A stretch of DNA of 64,000 nt from Thermoanaerobaculia bacterium (GTDB lineage Bacteria > Acidobacteriota > Thermoanaerobaculia > Multivoradales > JAIOJS01). Shown piece after piece: positions 9,341 through 29,905 of the stretch. Position 1 is the stretch's first letter; each line of letters opens with the position of its first letter. Both the position numbers and the translations under genes were made by a program. Location of the stretch: positions 1,054,281-1,118,280 of the forward strand of contig CAWDWV010000002.1 of NCBI GenBank assembly GCA_963806095.1. Reading direction: 5' to 3'. The notes under the pieces are model-generated. The model saw only the letters and a list, made by a program, of their open reading frames with translations, was not told the DNA's origin and did not search any database.

Positions 9341-10633
9341 ATGGAATCCCCTACCCGTTATCTGCGGCCGTCAGCGGCGGGACGCGCCGCGCTGAAGAAG
9401 CTCGGCGCGAATTACCCGGATCCGGTGAAATGGATTCATCAGGAGCAAAGGCTCAACGATCGGACCTCGAGCACAGAGTACTACTCGATCCAACCCACTT
9501 CGGTTCCGCCCGAATTCTGGCCCGAGCGACAACCGGTCTTTTGGTTACCGGAATTCGAGGCACCGAAGGATCAGTTCCGCCTCTTTCAGAATCCGGCACG
9601 CCCTGTGCCCTGGTACCTCTCGGGATCGCGGCCGGAATTCTATTCCTATCTGGTGCATCCATTGACCGTGCAGTATTTCCTCGATCGCGACATCAAGGGC
9701 GCGCGGTGGAGGAAGCCAAGGTTCCTGGCCACGCCGATGGCGTCCCACCGCACTCTCCTGGTGTGGGATCCACGGTCCGACAGGCCACCTTTCGCGGTCA
9801 AGACGTCGCTCAACCGGTGGATCGCAGGGCAGAATCGAAACGTCAGGCTCAAGGAGGTCGGGCGAAGCGTCGCTGTCTCTTCGCTGCTCGCGGGTCGCGA
9901 GGCAAACCTGAAGGGGCAGGGAATTCTCTTGCTCGACGACCCGGTAGGGCTGATGCCCAAAGGAGCCAATGCCGGCCTGGTGACGAGAGACATACCCTGG
10001 CGACTCGGCGCAGGTGAGGAGATAGTCCCGCTGTTCAGCTTGCTCGCTTCCTCGCGTGGACGTCCACGGATCGTGGACTTGATCGCGGCGAGCCGACTCG
10101 CGCCCTTGGCGTGGGTGGACAAGTTCATTTTTGCCCCACTCGTGTACCAGGCCTACTTCCTCGGCATGACGGAAGGCCTGCTCGGCGAGATGCACGAGCA
10201 GAACGTATTGATGGAATTGCGGGACGGCGTCCCGACGAAGCGGTTCTGGCATCGCGACCTGGGAGGGTTCGTCTTCGATCGCGAGCTGCGCCGTCTCGCC
10301 AATAAGGGATTCGCAGAGCTTCCGGCGGGCATTCAGCAGCGACACCTGGGGCGAGGCCTGGCGGTCTTTCACCTGGTGCTGCGCATGTACTTGCGAGGGT
10401 CCATGGCGTATGCGATCGGCGAGACGCTGCGAAAGCACTTCGAGATCCCGGCCGATAGTGTGGCCGAGCTCTATGACGTCAGGGTGAGCGAGCTCCAGAA
10501 GCTCATCCTTGCCGCAAATGGAATCCGCACGACGAAGAACGCCGAAAAGGACCTCGAGCGGTATCGGACGCGAAAGCTGCCAGGCGGTACCTGGCGTTGG
10601 AAGAGCTTGAGGGAAGCACTTCGAGACTGGTGA
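9341..10633 (+). CDS. Hypothetical protein with weak IucA/IucC (NIS synthetase)-like motifs. Low-GC orphan.
   Basis: Clean 430-aa ORF with markedly lower GC (about 57-58% versus about 72% flanking). It contains ASHRT, AVKTSL and HEQNVLMEL segments that resemble the SxRT / K / HxQN catalytic motifs of IucA/IucC enzymes. It lacks the equivalent of the N-terminal ~150 aa, so the family assignment is tentative. Confidence 0.55.
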   Translation: MESPTRYLRPSAAGRAALKKLGANYPDPVKWIHQEQRLNDRTSSTEYYSIQPTSVPPEFWPERQPVFWLPEFEAPKDQFRLFQNPARPVPWYLSGSRPEFYSYLVHPLTVQYFLDRDIKGARWRKPRFLATPMASHRTLLVWDPRSDRPPFAVKTSLNRWIAGQNRNVRLKEVGRSVAVSSLLAGREANLKGQGILLLDDPVGLMPKGANAGLVTRDIPWRLGAGEEIVPLFSLLASSRGRPRIVDLIAASRLAPLAWVDKFIFAPLVYQAYFLGMTEGLLGEMHEQNVLMELRDGVPTKRFWHRDLGGFVFDRELRRLANKGFAELPAGIQQRHLGRGLAVFHLVLRMYLRGSMAYAIGETLRKHFEIPADSVAELYDVRVSELQKLILAANGIRTTKNAEKDLERYRTRKLPGGTWRWKSLREALRDW

Positions 10634-10869: not shown

Positions 10870-12357
10870 ATGAGCGCCATCCTCAGCCTGCCCTACGTCC
10901 TCGCCGGCCTGTTCGTCCTCGCCTTCCTCTACATCATCGCCCGCGCCCTCTACAAGAAGGCGGGCCCGGACGAGGCGCTGATCGTCTACGGCCGCCGCAA
11001 GCTGTTCGGGCAGAAGGTGCGCGACGAGGCGGGGCAGGTGGAGAGCTTCCGCATCGTGCGCGGCGGCGGCACCTTCGTGTGGCCCGCCTGGGAAGCGGCG
11101 TCACGGCTCTCGCTCAAGATGATGACCCTCGACATCGACCTCAAGCACGTCTACACGATGGAGGGCATCCCCATCAACGTGCGGGCGGTGGCGCAGGTGA
11201 AGATCGGCAGCGCCATCGACCGCATCCGCCGCGCCGCCGAGGGCTTCCTCGGCATCAACCCCGACCAGATCGCGTCCACCATCAAGGAGACGGTGGCCGG
11301 CCACCTGCGCGGCATCATCGGCACCTTGACCGTCGAGACGCTCTACCGCGACCAGAAGCGCTTCCAGGAGCGCGTCCGCGAGGAGGCCCACGTCGACCTC
11401 GAGGGCATGGGCTTCGAGTTCAAGTCGTTCGTCTTCCAGGAGATCCAGGACGACGAGGGGTACCTCAACGCGCTCGGCCAGCCGAAGATCCAGGAGGCGC
11501 TCAAGAACGCCCGCATCGCCACCGCCAACGCCGACCGCGACGCGCAGGCTCGAGGAGGAGGGGGCCCGCCAGCAGAAGGAGTCAGAAGCGCTTCGACGTC
11601 GACACCGAGATCGCCGACTCCGACAAGTTCCTGTCGCTCAAGAAGGCCTCGATCAAGAAGGAGGTCGACGTCGCCAGCGCGCAGGCCACCAAGGCCGGCG
11701 AGATGGAGATGAAGGTCCAGGACATCAAGATCGCCGAGCAGGAGGTCGAGCGCCGCAAGCTGCAGCTCAACGCCGACGATCCGCGAGCAGGCCGACGCCG
11801 GAAGTTCGAGACCGAGCGGGTCGCCGACGCCGAGCAGTACCGCATCGAGCGCGCCGCCTCGGCCGAGCGCAAGCGCCGCGAGGAGCAGGCGCACGCGCTC
11901 AAGGCCGAGGGCCTCGCCAAGGCCGAGGCCGAGTCGGTGATGCGCCGGAACATCGGTCTCGCCGAGGCCGAGGCGATCGCCGCCAAGGGCAACGCCGAGG
12001 CCGAGGCGCGGCGCAAGCTCGCCGAGGCGCTCAAGCTCTACAACGAGGCCGGCCTCTCGATCGAGGCGCTCAAGGTGCTGCCCGAGATCGCCGCCGCGGT
12101 CGCCGAGCCGCTGTCGCGCGCCGGCGCCACCACCATCATCAGCAACGGCAGCGCCGGCAGCGGCACCGGCGCCGCCAAGCTCTCCGAGGACGTCATGCAG
12201 GTGATGTCGCAGCTCTCGCCGATCATGCAGCAGCTCGCCGGCGTCGACTTGAAGACGCTTCCTGCAGGACGTCTCGAAGCTGCCCGGAGCGGCGACCAAG
12301 GGCCTGCGCGCCGAAGCTCTGCGCGTCGAGCCGATCGTGCCCGAGCCGCGGAAGTAG
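10870..12357 (+). CDS. Flotillin-like SPFH/band-7 protein (YqiK/FloA-type), frameshifted at ~11555-11590 (x2) and ~12263
   Basis: N-terminal TM (LPYVLAGLFVLAFLYII) plus the SPFH core (EALIVYGRRK..., TLDIDLKHVYTMEGIPINVRAVAQVKI). An EA-rich coiled-coil tail (AEAEAIAAKGNAEAEARRKLAEA) follows. The natural C-terminus ...LLQDVSKLPGAATKGLRAEALRVEPIVPEPRK-stop at 12355-12357 is reached only after frame corrections. Confidence 0.7.
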
Positions 12358-12369
12358 CCGGAGCGCACG

Positions 12370-13653
12370 GTGAGCCAGAAAGCGCCGGTGCCCGGGGGCG
12401 ACCTCGCGCAGCTGCTCGCCGCGCTGCGCGGAGCGCCCGATTCGTGGAGCCGTCTCAAGCTGGTGGCGAGCGGCGCCCGCGCGCTCGCCAAGCTGACGCC
12501 GCAGCAGCGCGTCCAGCTGCTGCGGCAGCTCGGCCTGCAGGGAGCCGAGGAGCTGGCCGAAGCGGCGGCGGGCGGCGACGCGCAGACGGCGGCGGCGATG
12601 ACGAGCGCGCTCAAGGCGCTGGAGGCGGACCCGCGCCGGCTGCAGCAGCTCGCCGGAGCGATTGCCGATCCGAGCTCGCGCCGCGCCACGTTGATGGGGC
12701 TCGGCGCACACGTCATCGAGACGGTGACGGCGCCGGCGCCGGCGCCGGCGAAGACGAAGCCGACGGCGACAGGGAAGGCTGGGGCTGCGAGAGGCGGCGG
12801 GCAGTCGCGGACTGTCACCGAGACGGCAGCGGTGCCGCCGAAGCTGCCTCCAATGCCGCCGCAGCAGCCGACGGCGTCCGGCGCCGGGACGCCGCGGTTG
12901 CGCGACGAGCTGGTGGCCGCGGCCACGGCGCTGCTCACCGGAGCGCAGCCCGGCGCACCGCAGCCGCCGGCGCCCCCGGCACAACCGGCGACTCCCGCGC
13001 CGCCCGCCCAGCCGACGACGCCCGCCACGCCACAGCCGGCCACGCCACCGCCGTCGCTGCCGCCGACGCCGCACCCCTCGCCGTCGACTCCGCAGCCGCC
13101 GCCCGCGACCCCGCCGGCGCCGCCACAGCCGATCACGCCGCCGGCGACGCCGCCGTCGCTGCCGCAGCCCGTGCACCCGGTGACGCCGCCGTCGCCGACC
13201 GCGGACTCGACGACGACGCTCGACTCGGTCGCCGCCGCGCCGCAGTCAGCTCAACCGGCGCTGATCGCCACCGAGCTCGCCGCCCCGGAGCAGGCGCGAA
13301 CGGCGGGCACGCGCGTCGCGGCGATCGGCACGCTGCGCGACCTCCGCCGCCGCCTCGCCGGCGGCGAGGCGCTCGCGGCCGACGACGTCTCGACACTCTT
13401 CGCCCAGGAGCTGCCCCAGGGTTGGGCCCGCCGCCGCGCCCTCTCGGCGCTCTTCGCCGAGCGCCGGCCCGACCGGCTCGACGACGCGCTGACGCTGGTC
13501 GGGCAGGTGGGCTCGCCGGGGGACCGGCGGTGGGCGCTCGCCGACCTCGCCTCCAGCCGCGAGTGGGCGGACGGCGACTGGGCGCGTCTCGTCGCCGCCG
13601 CCGCCGGCGACGGCGAGCGTCGTCGCCTCGCCCTGCGCCGCCGCCGGGCGTAG
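12370..13653 (+). CDS. Hypothetical protein with a central Pro/Thr/Ala-rich low-complexity linker
   Basis: GTG start 12 nt after the flotillin stop. The N- and C-terminal regions are globular-looking. They flank about 90 aa of (P/A/T/Q)-rich repeats (PPAPPAQPATPAPPAQPTTPATPQPATPPPSLPPTP...). Confidence 0.5.
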   Translation: MSQKAPVPGGDLAQLLAALRGAPDSWSRLKLVASGARALAKLTPQQRVQLLRQLGLQGAEELAEAAAGGDAQTAAAMTSALKALEADPRRLQQLAGAIADPSSRRATLMGLGAHVIETVTAPAPAPAKTKPTATGKAGAARGGGQSRTVTETAAVPPKLPPMPPQQPTASGAGTPRLRDELVAAATALLTGAQPGAPQPPAPPAQPATPAPPAQPTTPATPQPATPPPSLPPTPHPSPSTPQPPPATPPAPPQPITPPATPPSLPQPVHPVTPPSPTADSTTTLDSVAAAPQSAQPALIATELAAPEQARTAGTRVAAIGTLRDLRRRLAGGEALAADDVSTLFAQELPQGWARRRALSALFAERRPDRLDDALTLVGQVGSPGDRRWALADLASSREWADGDWARLVAAAAGDGERRRLALRRRRA

Positions 13654-13794
13654 ACTCGGCGCATCCCCACCGCGACGGGTCCCGCGCAGCCGCCGTTCGA
13701 CCTCACCCTCGGCGGCGTCACCCCCGGCAAGCTCGGTCCGGCGCGCAGCCTGCGCAGCCGCATCCTCGTCGCCGTCGTCGCCCTCGTCGGGCTG

Positions 13795-15279
13795 GTGCTG
13801 CTCGCCAACATCGCCACCTTCGTGCTCACCAGCCGCGACGTCTCCTCCGCGGGGCTGCGCGGAGCGCTCGGCGAGCTCGGCCCGCGGCTGCTGCTGTTGT
13901 CGCTCGTCTCGCTGCTGCTCGGCACCCTGATCGCCATCGTCCTGTCGCGCCAGATCCTCCGCCCGCTGTCGCAGCTCACCGAGGGCGCCGCGCACTTCAC
14001 CGAAGGGCGTCTCCAGCACCGCATCGACCTCGGCACCGGCGACGAGCTCGAGGTGCTCGCCCGCACCTTCAACCACATGGCCTCGCACCTGGACGCGTTG
14101 ATCGCCGCGCTGGCGGCGGGCAACCGCGCCTTGCAGCAGAGCAACGTCGAGCTGCGCGCGCTCGACCGCCTGAAGAGCGACCTGCTCGCCAACGTCAGCC
14201 ACGAGCTGCGCACGCCGCTGACCTCCCTCAAGGGCTACACCGAGATGCTGCACGAGGAGCTGCTGGGCCCGCTCACCGAGGCGCAACGCGAGGCGCTCGA
14301 GGTCTCAACGCGCAGCATCGACCGCCTGCTCTACATGATCGACGAGATGCTGTCCTACGCCCGCTTCGAGTCGGGCGCGGTGCAGCTGGAGCGCCGCAAC
14401 GTCGACCTTGCGGCGGTGGCGCGCCAAGTGGTCGAAGGCGCCTTCGCCGCCCGCGGCCCGCAGCTCAACCTCCACCTCGACGTCGAGGCGAACCTGCCGG
14501 CGGTCGAGGCCGACGGCCAGCGCATCGCCCAGGTGCTCGAGAACCTGCTCACCAACGCGCTCAAGTTCACCCCCGACAACGGCCGCGTCGAAGTGCGGCT
14601 GTGGCGCGACGGCGGCGAGGTGGTCGCCGAGGTGGCCGACACCGGCATCGGCATCGCGCCCGAGGAGCAGCGCCGCATCTTCGAGCGCTTCTACCAGGTG
14701 CAGTCGTCGAGCACCCGCAAGTACGGCGGCATCGGCCTCGGCCTCGCCATCGTGCGGCAGATCCTCGACGCTCACGGCGCCACCATCGAGCTGGCGAGCG
14801 AGCCGGGCAAGGGCTCGACGTTCCGTTTTCGACTGCCCGTCGCCGCCCACCTCGACGCGCGCACCGGCAGCGGCCCGCGAGTGGCGGTGGTCGACGACGA
14901 CGTCCCCTTCGCGCGCGCCCTCGCCGACCACCTGGAGACCGCCGGCTACCACGCCCGCATAGCGGGCAGCGTCCAGGGCGCCGAGCAGCTGGTGCGCGAG
15001 TGGCAGCCGCGGCTGGTGGTGCTCGACCGCCTGCTCCCCGACGGCGACGGCTTCGACCTCCTCACGCGCTGGCGGCAGACGCTCGACGGCAAGCGGCTGC
15101 CCATCGTCGTCGTCTCGATGCGGCAGGAGGAGCCCCTGGCGCGCCGGCTCGGGGCCGACGGCTACTTGGTGAAGCCGGTCGAGCCGGCGGCGGTGCAGGC
15201 GGAGATCGAGCGCGTCCTATCGGCCATTGCCTCGCCGCCGGAGCAGGCGGTATCGTCGTCTCCGGGCACCACCCCATGA
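13795..15279 (+). CDS. Hybrid sensor histidine kinase (TM-HAMP-HisKA-HATPase_c-REC). N-terminus probably extends upstream to ~13654.
   Basis: HAMP region (ILRPLSQLTEGAAHF...NHMASHL). H-box SHELRTPLTSLKGY. N/G boxes (LTNALKFTP, DTGIGI, GGIGLGLAIV). C-terminal receiver (VAVVDDD...VVLDRLLPDGDGFDLL...LVKP). The in-frame upstream translation RILVAVVALVGLVLL looks like TM1 but has no canonical start codon. Possible indel. Confidence 0.85.
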   Translation: MLLANIATFVLTSRDVSSAGLRGALGELGPRLLLLSLVSLLLGTLIAIVLSRQILRPLSQLTEGAAHFTEGRLQHRIDLGTGDELEVLARTFNHMASHLDALIAALAAGNRALQQSNVELRALDRLKSDLLANVSHELRTPLTSLKGYTEMLHEELLGPLTEAQREALEVSTRSIDRLLYMIDEMLSYARFESGAVQLERRNVDLAAVARQVVEGAFAARGPQLNLHLDVEANLPAVEADGQRIAQVLENLLTNALKFTPDNGRVEVRLWRDGGEVVAEVADTGIGIAPEEQRRIFERFYQVQSSSTRKYGGIGLGLAIVRQILDAHGATIELASEPGKGSTFRFRLPVAAHLDARTGSGPRVAVVDDDVPFARALADHLETAGYHARIAGSVQGAEQLVREWQPRLVVLDRLLPDGDGFDLLTRWRQTLDGKRLPIVVVSMRQEEPLARRLGADGYLVKPVEPAAVQAEIERVLSAIASPPEQAVSSSPGTTP

Positions 15280-15677
15280 ACAGCTACAAGATCCTGGTCG
15301 TCGATGACGAGCCGGACGTGCTGCGGATGCTGCAGGTGGTGCTCGGCAGGCAGGGGCACCAGGTGCTCACCGCCCCGACCGGTCTCGAGGGGCTGGTCAC
15401 CGCGCAGGGCGAGCGGCCGGACCTCGTCCTGCTCGACGTCATGATGGAGGGGATGGACGGCTGGGAGGTGCTCAAGCTGCTCAAGCTCGAGCCCGGCACG
15501 CGCGACATCCCGGTGGTGATGCTGTCGGCGCGCACCGAGCCGCGCGACAAGATCCGCGGCCTGCAGGAAGGCGCCATCGACTACGTGACGAAGCCGTTCT
15601 CGGTGCGCGACCTGGTGCAGACGATCGAGGCGGTGCTCGAGCCGTCGGCCGCGGCGAGCGAAGGACGGAGCAGCTAG
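15276..15677 (+). CDS. Single-domain response regulator (CheY-like REC)
   Basis: MNSYKILVVDDEPDV...DLVLLDVMMEGMDGWEVL...VVMLSA...DYVTKP. The ATG overlaps the HK stop (ATGA). Confidence 0.85.
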   Translation: MNSYKILVVDDEPDVLRMLQVVLGRQGHQVLTAPTGLEGLVTAQGERPDLVLLDVMMEGMDGWEVLKLLKLEPGTRDIPVVMLSARTEPRDKIRGLQEGAIDYVTKPFSVRDLVQTIEAVLEPSAAASEGRSS

Positions 15678-16984
15678 TGGACGACAAGACCCACGAGCTC
15701 TTGCAGATGCGCGCCGAGTGGCTGAAGGTGCGCGGTTACATCTACGACCCCAACACCAGCCTGCCGGCGGTGCCGGCGGTGCTCGAGGACGTGCGGCGGC
15801 GGATCGAGAAGGGCGAGCGCATCGGCGTCATCTACCTCGACGTCTCGGGCGAGGAGTACCTCGAGGAGGTCTATGGCTGGGCCACCTACGACGGCCTGCT
15901 GCAGCAGGTGGCGCAGGCGCTCGCCGAGTGCAAGGGGCCGCTGCTCGGCGACGAAGACGTCGTCGCGCTCGCCGGCGTGCGCAGCGACCAGTTCCTCGTC
16001 TTCGTCGGCCTCGACGACCGCCGCGGCGCGATCGAGCTGGCGCAGCTGCGCGAGCGCGTAGTGAACGAGCTCGGCCGCCGCATCAAGATCCAGGTCGGCA
16101 AAGAGGTGCCGCGCGCCATCGGCCTGCATGCCGCCAGCAGCGTCCTCAAGTACGACGCCACGGTGCGCATCGAACGCTCGATCTACAAGGTGCTCGACGG
16201 CATCCGCATCGAGTGTCACCGCGACCGCGAGGAGAGCATGACGGCGCGGGGCCGCGAGCTGCGGCGGATCCTGCAGTCGCGCGACATCCTCATCCGCTAC
16301 CAGCCCATCGTGCGGCTGGGCGACGGCTCGGTCTTCGGCTACGAAGCGCTGTCGTGCGGCCCCGACGGCGACGTCTTCCAGAACCCCGAGATGCTGTTCT
16401 CGTTCGCCGAAAAGACCGACCAGATCGTGGATTTGGAGCGACTATGTAGGGTGGAGTCGGTGCGCGGCTCGGTGCGGCTGCCGCGGGGGCACAAGCTGTT
16501 TTTGAACTGCTCGGCGCACGGCATCGGCGACGTCGAGGGGCTGTCGACGCACCTGGTGGCGCAGGCGAAAGCGGCGGGGCTGCAGCCGTCGGACGTCGTG
16601 CTCGAGATCACCGAGCGGGTGGCGGTGACGGCGTGGAACGACTTCCGGAAGCGGATCGACGATCTGCGGGCGATGGGGTTCGGCGTCGCGATCGACGACA
16701 TGGGGGCGGGCTACTCGTCGCTGCACTCGGTGGCCGAGGTAGAGCCGGATTTTCTCAAGTTCGACATCGCGCTGGTGCGCGACATCCACCTCTCGCCGAT
16801 CAAGCGCGGCCTGCTCGAGAGCCTGGTGCTGCTGGCGGAGCGCATCGACTCGCAGGTGATCGCCGAGGGCGTGGAGAAGGAAGAGGAGTTCGAGACACTG
16901 CGGGAGATGAACGTGCCCTTCGGGCAGGGGTTTCTGTTCTCGCCGCCGACGACGTTGGCGTTTCATGTGCCGGAGAGCCCGTAA
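15677..16984 (+). CDS. Cyclic-di-GMP phosphodiesterase: degenerate GGDEF-like domain + EAL domain
   Basis: EAL signature residues are present (YEALSCG, DDMGAGYSSL, EGVE, QGFLFS). The N-terminal half aligns to a GGDEF fold, but the GG(D/E)EF site reads RSDQF. The GTG start overlaps the RR stop (TAGTG). Confidence 0.85.
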   Translation: MDDKTHELLQMRAEWLKVRGYIYDPNTSLPAVPAVLEDVRRRIEKGERIGVIYLDVSGEEYLEEVYGWATYDGLLQQVAQALAECKGPLLGDEDVVALAGVRSDQFLVFVGLDDRRGAIELAQLRERVVNELGRRIKIQVGKEVPRAIGLHAASSVLKYDATVRIERSIYKVLDGIRIECHRDREESMTARGRELRRILQSRDILIRYQPIVRLGDGSVFGYEALSCGPDGDVFQNPEMLFSFAEKTDQIVDLERLCRVESVRGSVRLPRGHKLFLNCSAHGIGDVEGLSTHLVAQAKAAGLQPSDVVLEITERVAVTAWNDFRKRIDDLRAMGFGVAIDDMGAGYSSLHSVAEVEPDFLKFDIALVRDIHLSPIKRGLLESLVLLAERIDSQVIAEGVEKEEEFETLREMNVPFGQGFLFSPPTTLAFHVPESP

Positions 16985-18612: not shown

Positions 18613-18906
18613 CTACCGGCGCCGTTGCCAGGACCGCGGGTGCCGAGAGCTGTGCGTTACCGCGATGACGATCACGTCGCCGTTCCGCAGCCGGTAGAAG
18701 ACCTGGTAGGGGAACCCGGACACGACCGCGCGGCGGATGTCGTTGTGGTGCACCACCGGGAAGGCGCGTGGATGGTCCAGCGCGATGGTCAACGTGTTGG
18801 CGACCGCGTCCGCAAACCGCGTTTCGAGCGCCGGGGATATCGCCCGGTACCAATCGCGCGCTTCCTGGATGTCGAGCTTGGCTGCCGCGCGGTAGCGCAG
18901 GCTCAT
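18613..18906 (-). CDS. parE: Type II toxin, ParE/RelE family
   Basis: MSLRYRAAAKLDIQEARDWY...FPYQVFYRLRNGDVIVIAVTHSSRHP matches the ParE/RelE fold consensus. It overlaps the upstream antitoxin by 4 nt. Confidence 0.7.
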   Translation of the reverse strand: MSLRYRAAAKLDIQEARDWYRAISPALETRFADAVANTLTIALDHPRAFPVVHHNDIRRAVVSGFPYQVFYRLRNGDVIVIAVTHSSRHPRSWQRRR

Positions 18907-19118
18907 GCGCGGGGCTTGCGGAGCCACGCGAGCAGCTCCTCGCCGGGCAGCGCGCCGTCGGGATCGCGATCGTCCTCAGCGATCCGTTCGTCGAGGAGCT
19001 GTTTCTGCCAGTCGGCGAGAGGCTCCTCCAAGAGGCTCAGATGGAGTGACTCCATCAGCGCCGCGCGCTCCTCGGCGGGGAGCTTGAGCGCCTGCTCTTG
19101 GAGCTCGGTCATTGTCAT
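18903..19118 (-). CDS. Type II antitoxin (putative addiction-module component, TIGR02574-like)
   Basis: 71-aa acidic protein (LKLPAEERAALMESLHLSLLEE...). Its stop overlaps the ParE start (ATGA). Confidence 0.6.
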   Translation of the reverse strand: MTMTELQEQALKLPAEERAALMESLHLSLLEEPLADWQKQLLDERIAEDDRDPDGALPGEELLAWLRKPRA

Positions 19119-19142: not shown

Positions 19143-20167
19143 TTACGGCAGGTACGACCCCGTCTGGACGTGGCTCATCGCCAGCGCCGTGACCAGCACC
19201 ACCGCGGCGCGTTCGACGCGCTGCTCGCGGGCGGCCGGGTAGACGAGCTGGAGCTCTTCGGCGCGGCGGCGCATCTGCGCCAGCAGCGCGCGCGTGTGCT
19301 CGGGGAAGTGGCCGGTCCAGCGGTAGACGTCGGCGGGTAGCGCGCGCGCGAGGCCGTCGATCAACGCCGCTGCCGGGCGCGGGTCTTCCGCCAGCCCTCG
19401 CCGCTCGTCGTCGAAGAGCGTCCGCAGCGCGCCGTCCAGCCCCGGCAGCGGGTCACCGCCAGCGTCGCCGTCCGACCTCGCCGTAGAAGTCGCGCAGCGA
19501 GTGGCCGACGGTCGCCGACGTCCTCGTCGAGGTCCTCGTCGGTGACCGCGGGCACCTCGCTGCGCAGCTCCTTCAGCGTGCGGTCGCAGTACTCGAGCTT
19601 CGCCAGCGCGCCACGGCCAGCCCGCGTACTCGCGCCGCCAGTCCAGGCCGCGGCGTCATCCACACCGCGAAGGTCTCCGCCCAGTCCTCGTCGGGGTGCT
19701 TCTGCGCGTACCAGCCGGGCAGGTGGCGGACGTAGCTTGCGGCTGAACGGCTCGGGGCGGTACTCCTCGCGGTAGGGCTGGCTGATGGGGCCGAAGAGCT
19801 CCACCCACTCCGGGCGCTCGTAGAGCCGGTAGGCGTAGTTGACGACGTGCCCCATCTCGTGGCGCAGGTAGCGCAGCACGTCGGCGCGGTCGGCGCCCTC
19901 GACGAAGGCCGGTGCGCTCGTCGTGCAGCGCCGTCAGCTCGGGGCTGCGCGAGGTAGAAGGGGATGGCGATGGCGACGGTGCCGAAGGGCACGCCCCACT
20001 CGGTCGAGAGGTAGGGCCGCGGCCGCACGGCGAGCCCCAGCCGGTCGACCTCGGCGAGGAACTCGTCCACGACCGGCTGCGAGCGGTGTCCCGTCGATGG
20101 CGAGCCCGAGGTCCCGGATCGGCGTGGTGACGTCGTGCGTCTCTTGGAAACCGGTCTCGGCGGCCAT
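19143..20167 (-). pseudogene. Putative zinc-dependent metallopeptidase-like protein (HExxH), split over three or more frames
   Basis: Colinear fragments on the minus strand are spread over three frames: MAAETGFQETHDVTTPIRDLGLAIDG | ...QPVVDEFLAEVDRLGLAVRPRPYLSTEWGVPFGTVAIAIPFYLAQP | LRYLRHEMGHVVNYAYRLYERPEW...EPF | HLPGWYAQKHPDEDWAETFAVWMTP | ...IDGLARALPADVYRWTGHFPEHTRALL. Confidence 0.45.
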
Positions 20168-20240
20168 GGTCCTGGCCGCCGCAACGTGCAAGAGACTTGC
20201 CGCAGCTCGTTGTTGCGCGAGCCGCAGCGCCGCGAAGACG

Positions 20241-20502: not shown

Positions 20503-23063
20503 ATGCGCCGCGAGGTCGAGCCCTACCGCCCCCACGAATTCGAGTCGCGCTGGCAGGACTTCTGGCAGCGCGAGGGGCTCGACCGCACGCCCGAGCCGCC
20601 GCGCGACAAGCGCTACGTCCTCGAGATGCTCGCCCTACCCCTCGGGCGACATCCACATCGGGCACTTCCGCAACTACACGATCGGCGACGTCGTCGCCCG
20701 CTTCGAGCGCATGCGCGGGCACGACGTGCTGCACCCCTTCGGCTGGGACGCCTTCGGGCTGCCGGCGGAGAACGCCGCCATCACCCGCGGCATCCACCCC
20801 GGCGAGTGGACGACGAAGAACATCGAGACCTCGCGCAACACGCTGCGGCAGATGGGGCTCTCCTACGACTGGGAGCGCGAGGTCGTCACCTGCCGCGCCG
20901 ACTACTACAAGTTCACGCAGTGGATGTTCCTGCTGCTGCACCGCCGCGGCCTCGCCTATCGCGCGCGCGCGGCGGTGAACTGGTGCCCGGTGGACCAGAC
21001 GGTGCTCGCCAACGAGCACGTCGTCGACGGCTGCTGCTGGCGGCACCCGGGCGTGCCGGTGGAGAAGCGCGAGCTCGAGCAGTGGTTCTTCCGCATCACC
21101 GAGTACGCGCAGCGGCTGCTCGATGACCTCGACAAGCTCCCCGACTGGCCGGAGAGCACGGTCAAGATGCAGCGCTCGTGGATCGGGCGCAGCGAGGGCG
21201 CCGAGGTGACCTTCCACGTCCCCGGCTGGGCCACCGCCAGCGGCCACGGCGAGGGGATCACGGTGTTCACGACGCGCCCCGACACGCTGTGGGGCGCCAC
21301 CTTCCTCACCCTCGCCCCCGAGCACGCGATGGTGGCCCGCGTGGTCACTCCCGACCAGCGCGCCGAGGTCGATGCCTACGTCACGGCGGCGCGCCGCAAG
21401 ACCGACATCGAGCGCTCCGATCTGACGCGGGAGAAGGACGGCGTCTTCACCGGCGCCTACGCCATCAACCCGGTGACGCACGACCCCATCCCGATCTGGG
21501 TCGCCGACTACGTGCTCGGCGGCTACGGCACCGGCGCCATCATGGGCGTGCCGGCGCACGACGAGCGCGACTTCGCCTTCGCCCGCGCCTACGGGGTGCC
21601 GCTCAAGGTGGTGGTGCAGCCACTGGATCCGCAATCCGGTGGAGAGAAACCCGCGCTGCGGCTCGACGCCGAGACGATGACCGAAGCCTGGTCCGGCGAG
21701 GGAACGATGGTCGACTCGCCGCCGTTCGACGGCACGCCGGCGCCGGAAGGCATCCCGCAGGTGATCGCCTGGCTCGCCGAGCGCGGCATCGGCCGCGCCA
21801 AGGTGCAGTTCCGGCTGCGCGACTGGCTGATCAGCCGCCAGCGCTATTGGGGCTGCCCGATCCCGATGATCCACTGCCAACGAGAGTGCGGCGTCGTGCC
21901 GGTGCCCGAGGAGCAGCTGCCGATCGAGCTGCCGGCGCACGTCGAGAGCTTCATCCCCACCGGGCGCTCGCCGCTCGAGGACGTGCCGGAGTTCATCAAC
22001 ACCACCTGCCCGCAGTGCGGCGGGCCGGCGAAGCGCGACCCCGACACCATGGACACCTTCGTCGACTCGTCGTGGTACATGCTGCGCTACGTCGACGCGA
22101 ACAACGACAGCGAGCCTTTCTCGCGCGAGCGGGCGAAGGAGTGGCTGCCGATCGACCTCTACATCGGCGGCGACGAGCACGCCACCGGCCACCTGCTCTA
22201 CTTCCGCTTCTTCACCAAGGTGCTGTTCGACGCCGGTTGGTTGCCGGTGGAGGAGCCGGTGAGCCGCCTCGTCCACCAGGGCATGGTGGCCGACGCGCAG
22301 GGCGAGACGATGTCGAAGTCGAAGGGGAACGTGGTCTCGCCCGGCGACCTCTTCGCGCGCGACGGCGTCGACGTGCCGCGGCTGGCGATGCTGTTCTTCG
22401 CGCCGTCGGACGCCGAGATCCTGTGGAGCGAGGCGGGCATCGAGGGCACGCGCCGCTTCGTGTACCGGCTGTGGGAGACGATGATCGGCGACCATCGCAG
22501 ACCCGCGCTTCGCGGGCACGGCGGAAGCCGGCGCCGGCATCGACCCCAGCGGACTGTCGAGCGGCGCGCGCGAGGCTTGGCGCCTCGTCCACCGCGCGCT
22601 CGAGCGCACGACGCAGGCTTGCGAGCGCGACCTCGCCTTCAATACCGCCGTCGCCCTCTACATGGAGTGGATCAACGCCGTGCGCCGTGTCGGCGAGCCG
22701 GGGGAGTGGAGCGACGCCGACTTCCCGTCGCTCGCCGCCGCCGTGCGCATCGTGGCGCAGGCGATCGCGCCGCTGGCGCCGCACCTCGGCGAGGAGCTAT
22801 GGCAACGCGTCGGCGGCGAGGGCAGCGTCTTCCGCGCCGGCTGGCCGCAGGTCGACGCCGCCGCCCTGCGCCGCGAAACCGTCGAGGTGCCGGTGCAGGT
22901 CAACGGCAAGCTGCGCAGCCGCATCTACATGGCGCCGGATGCCAGCAAGGAAGAGATGGAGCAGGCGGCGCTCGGCGACGACAAGGTGCGCGAGCTGCTC
23001 GCCGGCAAGCCGCCGCGGCGCGTGATCGTGGTGCCCGGCCGGCTCGTCAACGTCGTCGCGTAG
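20503..23063 (+). CDS. leuS: Leucyl-tRNA synthetase, frameshifted at ~20633 and ~22495
   Basis: [20 protein letters not shown] (HIGH), [32 protein letters not shown] ([12 protein letters not shown]) and the C-terminal anticodon-binding domain. The gene is read across frames 1, 2 and 3. It is essential, so the frameshifts are almost certainly assembly errors. Confidence 0.9.

Positions 23064-28238: not shown

Positions 28239-29905
<1,667 letters not shown>

Follow-up and report, generated by a model that had tools for sequence, protein, structure and literature searches.

RocR and PvrR from Pseudomonas aeruginosa, VieA from Vibrio cholerae and RavR from Xanthomonas are response-regulator phosphodiesterases of the REC-(GGDEF)-EAL type. 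Their closest counterpart in the DNA analysed here, a stretch of 64,000 nucleotides from a Thermoanaerobaculia bacterium (contig CAWDWV010000002.1; the whole stretch is called the window below), lies at 10870-16984. At this position, five consecutive plus-strand genes encode a flotillin, a proline-rich protein (PRO), a hybrid histidine kinase (HK), a response regulator (RR) and a protein in which a degenerate GGDEF domain is followed by an EAL domain. As for RocR, PvrR, VieA and RavR, a histidine kinase would control the hydrolysis of cyclic di-GMP (c-di-GMP) through a receiver coupled to EAL, judging here from sequence alone. Unlike in those regulators, the receiver is a separate protein of 133 residues, both in the window and in about 50 orthologous loci, and its gene overlaps the EAL gene by 1 nt. 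Because the RR is separate from the EAL protein, the control must be intermolecular. Moreover, no protein of the cassette reaches an NCBIfam equivalog cutoff; the PvrR model, for instance, gives 78.8 bits where 580 are required. The HK-RR-EAL cassette appears to be a stably split variant that works like the REC-GGDEF-EAL regulators without being a member of that group, and a literature search on single-domain response regulators paired with EAL proteins returned nothing relevant.

The comparison across genomes indicates that flotillin-PRO and HK-RR-EAL would be two separate modules, which are neighbours only in one genus-level clade. A profile search with the EAL protein yielded 79 loci from species-representative genomes, and these were searched with the window proteins by tblastn. 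Of the 57 loci in which the sequence upstream of the EAL gene extends over 7 kb or more, 44 have the HK, RR and EAL genes in the same order and orientation. This trio spans EAL identities from 91% down to 35% and is present in Thermoanaerobaculia, Vicinamibacteria, WOR-3, TA06 and other groups. No flotillin lies near 41 of the 44 triads; only L001, L003 and L004 combine the trio with flotillin and PRO, and in L002 and L005 a flotillin-PRO-RR-EAL arrangement without the kinase is observed. The initial annotation had treated flotillin, HK, RR and EAL as one linked unit. Among the relatives, this linkage breaks down outside a narrow range: flotillin and PRO stand upstream of the cassette only at an EAL identity of at least 85% (L001-L005 and L084-L090), flotillin being absent at 71% (L006) and beyond. 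The possibility that SPFH proteins had been overlooked by a strict threshold was rejected by a tblastn search at E<=10, which in the other 74 loci gave nothing better than E=8.6 (two chance-level matches). A universal upstream partner of HK-RR-EAL was also considered and rejected, as the clustering of upstream open reading frames shows only subclade-specific neighbours.

The flotillin-PRO pair, for its part, is found without the cassette. Pairs whose flotillin is 70-81% identical to that of the window precede unrelated genes, and at least six of these loci are without a two-component system. For example, in L080 and L102 a flotillin of 77% identity is followed by PRO and then by AhpC/redoxin genes, and in L082 and L083 flotillin and PRO are followed by a CHAT-STAND gene. 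In L095, L096, L097 and L100, no match to HK, RR or EAL is detected within 2-8 kb downstream, and in L081, where the end of the contig leaves just a fragment of PRO, SecD follows. Within the window clade (the window, L001-L005 and L084-L090), the upstream Ser/Thr kinase gene is likewise syntenic, and the clade is so narrow that synteny shared inside it is uninformative on function. We therefore propose that one module would consist of a FloT-like flotillin and a lineage-specific soluble PRO, and the other of a membrane HK, a single-domain RR and a GGDEF-EAL phosphodiesterase, forming a two-component c-di-GMP cassette. They would have been brought together in the common ancestor of a single genus-level clade of Thermoanaerobaculia. 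To the whole explanation, in which the two modules are independent and only recently adjacent, the kinase has been reduced by deletion and the frameshifts of the flotillin gene are artefactual, we assign a probability of roughly 75%.

The block itself is compact. Reading frames and the Pfam scan bear out the five consecutive plus-strand genes of the initial annotation, and the two overlaps that it described are exact to the nucleotide, being ATGA for the HK stop and the RR start (15276-15279) and TAGTG for the RR stop and the GTG start of the EAL gene (15675-15679). The spacing between flotillin and PRO is 12 nt, and all the gaps within the block fall between -4 and 12 nt. However, co-directionality and short overlaps of this kind are ordinary for bacterial operons and represent no statistical anomaly.

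The RR (15276-15677, plus strand; Pfam Response_reg E=1.9e-28) is a single REC domain in which D10, D11, D54 and K106 are well preserved: among 53 cassette orthologues, 98% or more have the consensus residue at each of these positions. In 56 of 69 loci, the RR gene is followed immediately by the EAL gene. The GGDEF-EAL protein (15677-16984, plus strand; 435 residues; Pfam EAL E=1.9e-48, GGDEF 24.2 bits) is covered over residues 23-428 by profile matches to the tandem structures of MorA, RbdA and LapD. Its GGDEF-like domain (15743-16135) is degenerate, with RSDQF in the window and RGDEF or RGEEF in the orthologues at the place of the GG(D/E)EF active-site motif of diguanylate cyclases. In the EAL domain (16253-16948), the residues E223, N277, E310/E313, D340/D341, K361, E397/E400 and Q417 are invariant in the alignment, the catalytic residues align to those of BlrP1 and TBD1265, and loop 6 (DxGxGYSSL) is intact. 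The protein is predicted to be a c-di-GMP phosphodiesterase.

Natural fusions bear on the relation between the two proteins. When the degenerate GGDEF domain was used by itself in an exhaustive search, relatives extended at the N-terminus by 125-170 residues were recovered, and seven of the ten that were scanned are REC-(GGDEF)-EAL fusions with a degenerate GGDEF domain. The fused receivers are 39-50% identical to the window RR in four fusions and about 25% in two, with no match in one, and 23-34% identical to the receiver of the HK itself. Among the 120 listed EAL homologues (79-482 residues), none is long enough for a fused REC, and in the window RR and EAL are separate genes, without the covalent fusion of the REC-GGDEF-EAL regulators. 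From the strict adjacency of RR and EAL, together with the natural fusions, we infer an interaction between the phosphorylated RR and the EAL protein, so that a direct control of the phosphodiesterase by the RR is most likely. In this mechanism, the kinase would phosphorylate the stand-alone REC, and the phosphorylated RR would dock on GGDEF-EAL in the manner of the cis-acting receiver of the fusions, altering c-di-GMP hydrolysis. The receiver fused to the HK is absent from many HK orthologues, and no Hpt domain is present; probably, this receiver does not act as a relay step but takes up phosphate as a modulatory sink. In L004, a Glu replaces the phospho-acceptor Asp of the fused receiver (LVVLERLLP), whereas the window keeps the Asp, and in some species this domain may then be a pseudo-receiver.

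A stand-alone receiver acting on a phosphodiesterase has a described parallel in Caulobacter crescentus, where CpdR is the adaptor for the degradation of PdeA by ClpXP (PMC8973945). The cassette resembles the CpdR-PdeA pair, in which the phosphorylation of the receiver determines what becomes of the phosphodiesterase, in that the phosphodiesterase also has a degenerate GGDEF domain. It differs in that its genes are adjacent and overlapping, which is not known of cpdR and pdeA, and no sign of proteolytic control is seen here. Moreover, the REC fusions argue for a direct allosteric control rather than a CpdR-like adaptor function, serving as a Rosetta-stone argument for a direct interaction between RR and phosphodiesterase. 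The initial annotation had proposed a flotillin-associated two-component system with a c-di-GMP phosphodiesterase as its output. The two-component part of this proposal is strengthened by the conservation of the trio down to 35% EAL identity and by the existence of the fusions, whereas the association with flotillin is not. What emerges is a widely conserved and uncharacterised, if otherwise ordinary, cassette of Acidobacteriota, WOR-3 and related phyla in which a stand-alone, not fused, receiver appears to control a GGDEF-EAL protein.

The cassettes of Vicinamibacteria have an arrangement of their own. In eleven loci (L032, L035, L038, L040, L048, L050, L056, L058, L060, L061 and L078), the HK carries two receivers and is followed by the RR, the EAL gene and then a second EAL paralogue of about 30% identity. 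A conserved divergent gene upstream of these cassettes resembles, by eye only, a protein with a T2SSE_N/MshEN-type domain.

Intramembrane-sensing histidine kinases of the LiaS, BceS and DesK types are characterised, in Mascher's definition, by two transmembrane (TM) helices and a spacer of less than 25 residues. The window HK (13654-15279, plus strand) was assigned to this class by the initial annotation, and it does resemble the LiaS-type kinases in having two hydrophobic segments separated by 20 residues and followed by HAMP, although it falls under the definition only if TM1 is translated. These segments correspond to TM1 at 13762-13827 (I37-L58 of the open frame), the loop at 13828-13887 (T59-R78) and TM2 at 13888-13944 (L79-L97). 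They are followed by HAMP (13939-14091), HisKA (14173-14376), HATPase_c (14512-14844) and REC (14881-15207), all above the Pfam cutoffs, REC as Response_reg. The motifs SHELRTP, DTGIGI, GGIGLGL and LVVLDRLLP...VKP are read in the translation, and the residues of the H-, N-, G1- and G2-boxes and of REC are all present, as in a hybrid histidine kinase. Unlike for the LiaS and BceS types, no BceAB-type transporter or LiaF-like protein is found among the neighbours of the kinase, which are flotillin, PRO, RR, EAL, a CarboxypepD_reg-like protein and an ATP-grasp protein.

Also unlike the LiaS, BceS and DesK types, the window HK descends from a periplasmic-sensing family. In about 45 HK orthologues, the distance from TM1 to TM2 is roughly 80-170 residues, with about 140-170 residues in Acidobacteriota and lower values in the WOR-3 type. 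A periplasmic motif, CxAYETYYxSGYSKFREL...PYVEEWGRHRYS, is common to the Acidobacteriota orthologues inspected (L003-L012, L021 and L048), and the periplasmic domain of the orthologous kinases gives no match in Pfam. With respect to L004, a single in-frame deletion of 137 residues is common to the window, L001, L084-L086, L088 and L089. In addition, the C-terminal extension that follows the receiver of the L004 kinase, of about 114 residues, is gone from the window lineage. Displacement of the sensor or of the C-terminal extension to another place in the window was considered and rejected, since tblastn found no remnant. The short-loop HK would then be a recent deletion derivative of a periplasmic-sensing HK, not a dedicated intramembrane-sensing lineage. 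The two hydrophobic segments and the 20-residue loop of the earlier assignment stand, but this layout derives from the removal of a periplasmic domain that the orthologues keep, and a short loop that results from reductive evolution does not speak for an intramembrane sensor coupled to flotillin.

The start of the kinase gene has been lost as well. In L003 and L004, the kinase gene has its own ATG and a spacer of 50-130 nt. The window lineage has deleted both, so that the PRO stop codon, a TAG read at 13651-13653 on the plus strand, abuts the HK and is in frame with its N-terminal coding region. No ATG, GTG or TTG is found upstream of TM1, and the first canonical start is a GTG at 13795, in the middle of TM1. 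L001, L084, L085 and L086 have the same start-less junction with the TAG in frame, which comes in two versions with a difference of exactly 21 nt. Between the TAG and the first canonical start, a TM1 with positive flanks is still encoded, and it is conserved in the orthologues. The short HK is an intact open reading frame of about 526 codons in seven contigs, and its ratio of non-synonymous to synonymous substitution rates (dN/dS) against L001 is 0.32 at a dS of about 0.35, similar to the neighbour genes. The intact frame and the purifying selection suggest that the short HK is made despite the lack of a canonical upstream start, probably by use of a non-canonical start or of one inside the gene. 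Candidates for initiation include CTG, ATC or ACG codons, the internal GTG and readthrough of the TAG.

Taken in sequence, the ancestral kinase would sense through the conserved periplasmic domain of roughly 140-170 residues. The kinase of the window lineage would have lost this sensor, the C-terminal pseudo-receiver extension, the start codon and the spacer, leaving a minimised TM-loop-TM-HAMP-DHp-CA-REC protein abutting the PRO stop codon, and sister species would then have dropped the kinase completely. Indeed, L003, L004 and L090 have the flotillin adjacency together with a full periplasmic-sensor HK, and in L002 and L005 the HK is gone entirely, PRO being followed by the RR after about 60-100 nt. 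One genus would offer a snapshot of stepwise kinase erosion, in the order sensor domain, start codon, whole gene, with RR and phosphodiesterase kept throughout.

The flotillin gene (10870-12357, plus strand) encodes a FloT-like protein. Once its frame is corrected, the reconstructed protein matches Band_7 with E=1.5e-24 and Flot with 28.6 bits against a cutoff of 27, and it covers positions 7-476 of the 477 of the NCBIfam FloT model with 323.6 bits, below the equivalog cutoff of 700. The Band_7/SPFH domain, an EA-rich coiled coil and an N-terminal membrane anchor, read from the sequence as a hydrophobic stretch, place it in the flotillin class. In the window, the gene starts and ends in frame 1 and crosses other frames between, due to four 1-nt insertions (11546, 11584, 11777 and 12256) and one 1-nt deletion (about 11799). 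These five indels are specific to the window when compared with intact orthologues from seven other assemblies (86-93% DNA identity), and in the closest relatives, L084-L086, the intact protein has 489-494 residues.

Similar defects occur in other genes of the window. A patch at 19145-20202 on the minus strand has at least eight single-base insertions in a Peptidase_Mx-like gene, further ones are seen at 20631-20635 and 22485-22523, and a patch at 28327-29665 on the plus strand contains about 20 insertions over 1.4 kb. The insertions are isolated and lie outside homopolymers, and a gene for about 553 residues is also among those scrambled. At these sites, scored against one to four relatives, the relatives (e.g., L003 and L004) have single open reading frames with a third-position GC content (GC3) of 0.93-0.96, whereas the window, whose overall GC content is 72%, has no coherent frame. 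The excess of insertions over deletions and their clustering in patches on a contig of 4.36 Mb point to an unpolished long-read consensus, not to gene decay, and the flotillin frameshifts are most likely assembly consensus errors. For this assembly, the insertion-error patches mimic pseudogenes, and any pseudogene in the window needs read support.

PRO (12370-13653, plus strand; 427 residues) lies directly 3' of the flotillin gene, as it does in L080, L083, L091, L092 and L097-L100, and this holds wherever the upstream sequence sufficed. It has an N-terminal helical domain (residues 8-120), a proline-rich linker of about 185 residues and a C-terminal helical domain (residues 305-427), without any TM segment. 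In an AlphaFold2 model built with 15 homologues, the two helical domains have pLDDT values of about 88 and 93 and the linker is disordered. Neither Pfam nor NCBIfam contains a matching family, and a Foldseek comparison of the model with the PDB gave nothing at E<=0.001, the best hit having E=2.7. The family comprises 25 protein clusters, of which all the named ones belong to Thermoanaerobaculia. As in the FloT/FloA operons and in the flotillin-KinC case of Bacillus subtilis, the locus combines a FloT-like SPFH protein with a nearby kinase gene. Unlike in the FloT/FloA operons, the partner is PRO and not an NfeD (YuaF/YqiJ) homologue, and the kinase neighbourhood is not conserved. PRO appears to be a lineage-specific soluble flotillin partner in the place usually held by NfeD, which gives this flotillin a lineage-specific partner instead of the usual one.

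Some points weigh against the explanation proposed here. The five genes are tightly packed within the genus and plausibly co-transcribed, and the block is free of terminator-like sites; the scan behind this was uninformative, its result of no promoters and three terminator-like sites being at chance level throughout. The deletion of the HK start formally ties the expression of the kinase to the flotillin-PRO transcript, and this could be a newly evolved coupling and not decay. As for the output, the Arg of the EALxR motif, which contacts the substrate phosphate, is absent family-wide, EALS[C/S/A]GP (16343-16363) being found against EAL(I/V)R in BlrP1 and TBD1265, so that phosphodiesterase activity or substrate affinity may be atypical. 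Besides, phosphotransfer from HK to RR, the interaction of RR with the phosphodiesterase and the activity of the latter are all steps that we infer from the sequences, and the flotillin frameshifts have a small probability of being genuine. The packing is also the starting point of the initial annotation's model, in which flotillin and PRO would scaffold a sensor-less HK in membrane microdomains and gate the phosphorylation of the RR and the hydrolysis of c-di-GMP, the fusion of the operons and the loss of the sensor marking the point at which this genus turned to an input that depends on flotillin. In line with this model are the five co-directional genes with their small gaps, a kinase that lacks its own start and spacer, and the purifying selection that keeps the short HK, and FloT-KinC of B. 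subtilis offers a precedent for a flotillin acting with a kinase. However, the adjacency is limited to one narrow clade and each module is found alone elsewhere, L003, L004 and L090 keep a complete sensor next to the flotillin, and L002 and L005 retain flotillin, PRO, RR and EAL with no HK at all. With long-HK and no-HK variants in the same arrangement, the block does not behave as one selected unit. Considering also the 41 triads that lack a flotillin, c-di-GMP turnover gated by membrane microdomains is not supported, and we regard it as quite unlikely. A literature search for a flotillin linked to a c-di-GMP two-component system found nothing; if real, such a switch would connect bacterial membrane microdomains with second-messenger signalling in a new way, but the comparative evidence is against it. 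A narrower version, in which PRO or flotillin replaces the lost periplasmic domain as the input of the HK, through a PRO-HK fusion made by TAG readthrough or through termination-reinitiation, is very unlikely. Here, a low-level readthrough of the TAG would let the cytoplasmic PRO domains tether the HK to flotillin assemblies; alternatively, termination-reinitiation would couple the synthesis of HK to that of PRO. The in-frame relation of TAG and HK holds in both junction variants and, together with the conserved TM1 encoded after the TAG, lends weak support to such a coupling, which, if true, would make raft-gated turnover of c-di-GMP a feature of this one genus.

The same junction can be read in the opposite sense, with the HK of the window as a decaying relic that is not productively translated, RR and EAL acting without it, either unphosphorylated or cross-phosphorylated by another kinase, which is unavoidable in the species that have no HK. 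Upstream of TM1, ATG, GTG and TTG are absent in five genomes, one gene has suffered three separate deletions, and L002 and L005 have no kinase left, with RR and EAL still under purifying selection (EAL dN/dS 0.15-0.26). Nonetheless, at the divergence given above neutral decay should have brought stops or frameshifts, yet the frame of about 526 codons is intact in seven independent contigs, its dN/dS is 0.32, and all the residues of the H-, N-, G1- and G2-boxes and of REC are retained. We consider this reading unlikely and favour a reduced kinase that is still made. A comparable question concerns the flotillin, which could be a genuine pseudogene in this genome, leaving no flotillin scaffold here. 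Five frame-disrupting single-base indels within 710 bp, outside homopolymers, would fit this idea. But the closest relatives, at 93% nucleotide identity, carry intact genes, isolated insertions of like style affect other conserved genes (about 20 over 1.4 kb at 28.3-29.7 kb), insertions far outnumber deletions, contrary to the usual deletion bias of bacteria, and the source is one 4.36-Mb contig, typical of a long-read assembly. A true pseudogene is on these grounds quite improbable, and consensus errors in an intact flotillin gene remain the preferred explanation.

Around the block, the clade shows considerable variation in gene content. The segment between the Ser/Thr kinase-TPR gene and the flotillin gene (9341-10633) is a variable slot, with a local GC content down to 67%. 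In the window, L084 and L085 (3728-5057), this slot is occupied by a protein of 430 residues with weak IucA/FhuF-like matches, in L086 (2526-4700) by a CHAT protein on the opposite strand, and in L003 it measures just about 120 nt. Downstream of the block, an island of 6-7 kb lies between the EAL and ATP-grasp genes in L084 (11308-19034), L085 (11308-17317) and L001 (11305-18154); its content (DUF4145, AbiJ_NTD4, DUF6602 and NPCBM) is defence-like, and the window is without it. Finally, a ParE-family toxin gene (PF05016, E=7.5e-9) and an overlapping Unstab_antitox antitoxin gene (PF09720, E=7.8e-10) are found on the minus strand at 18613-19118, between the ATP-grasp gene and the Peptidase_Mx-like gene.

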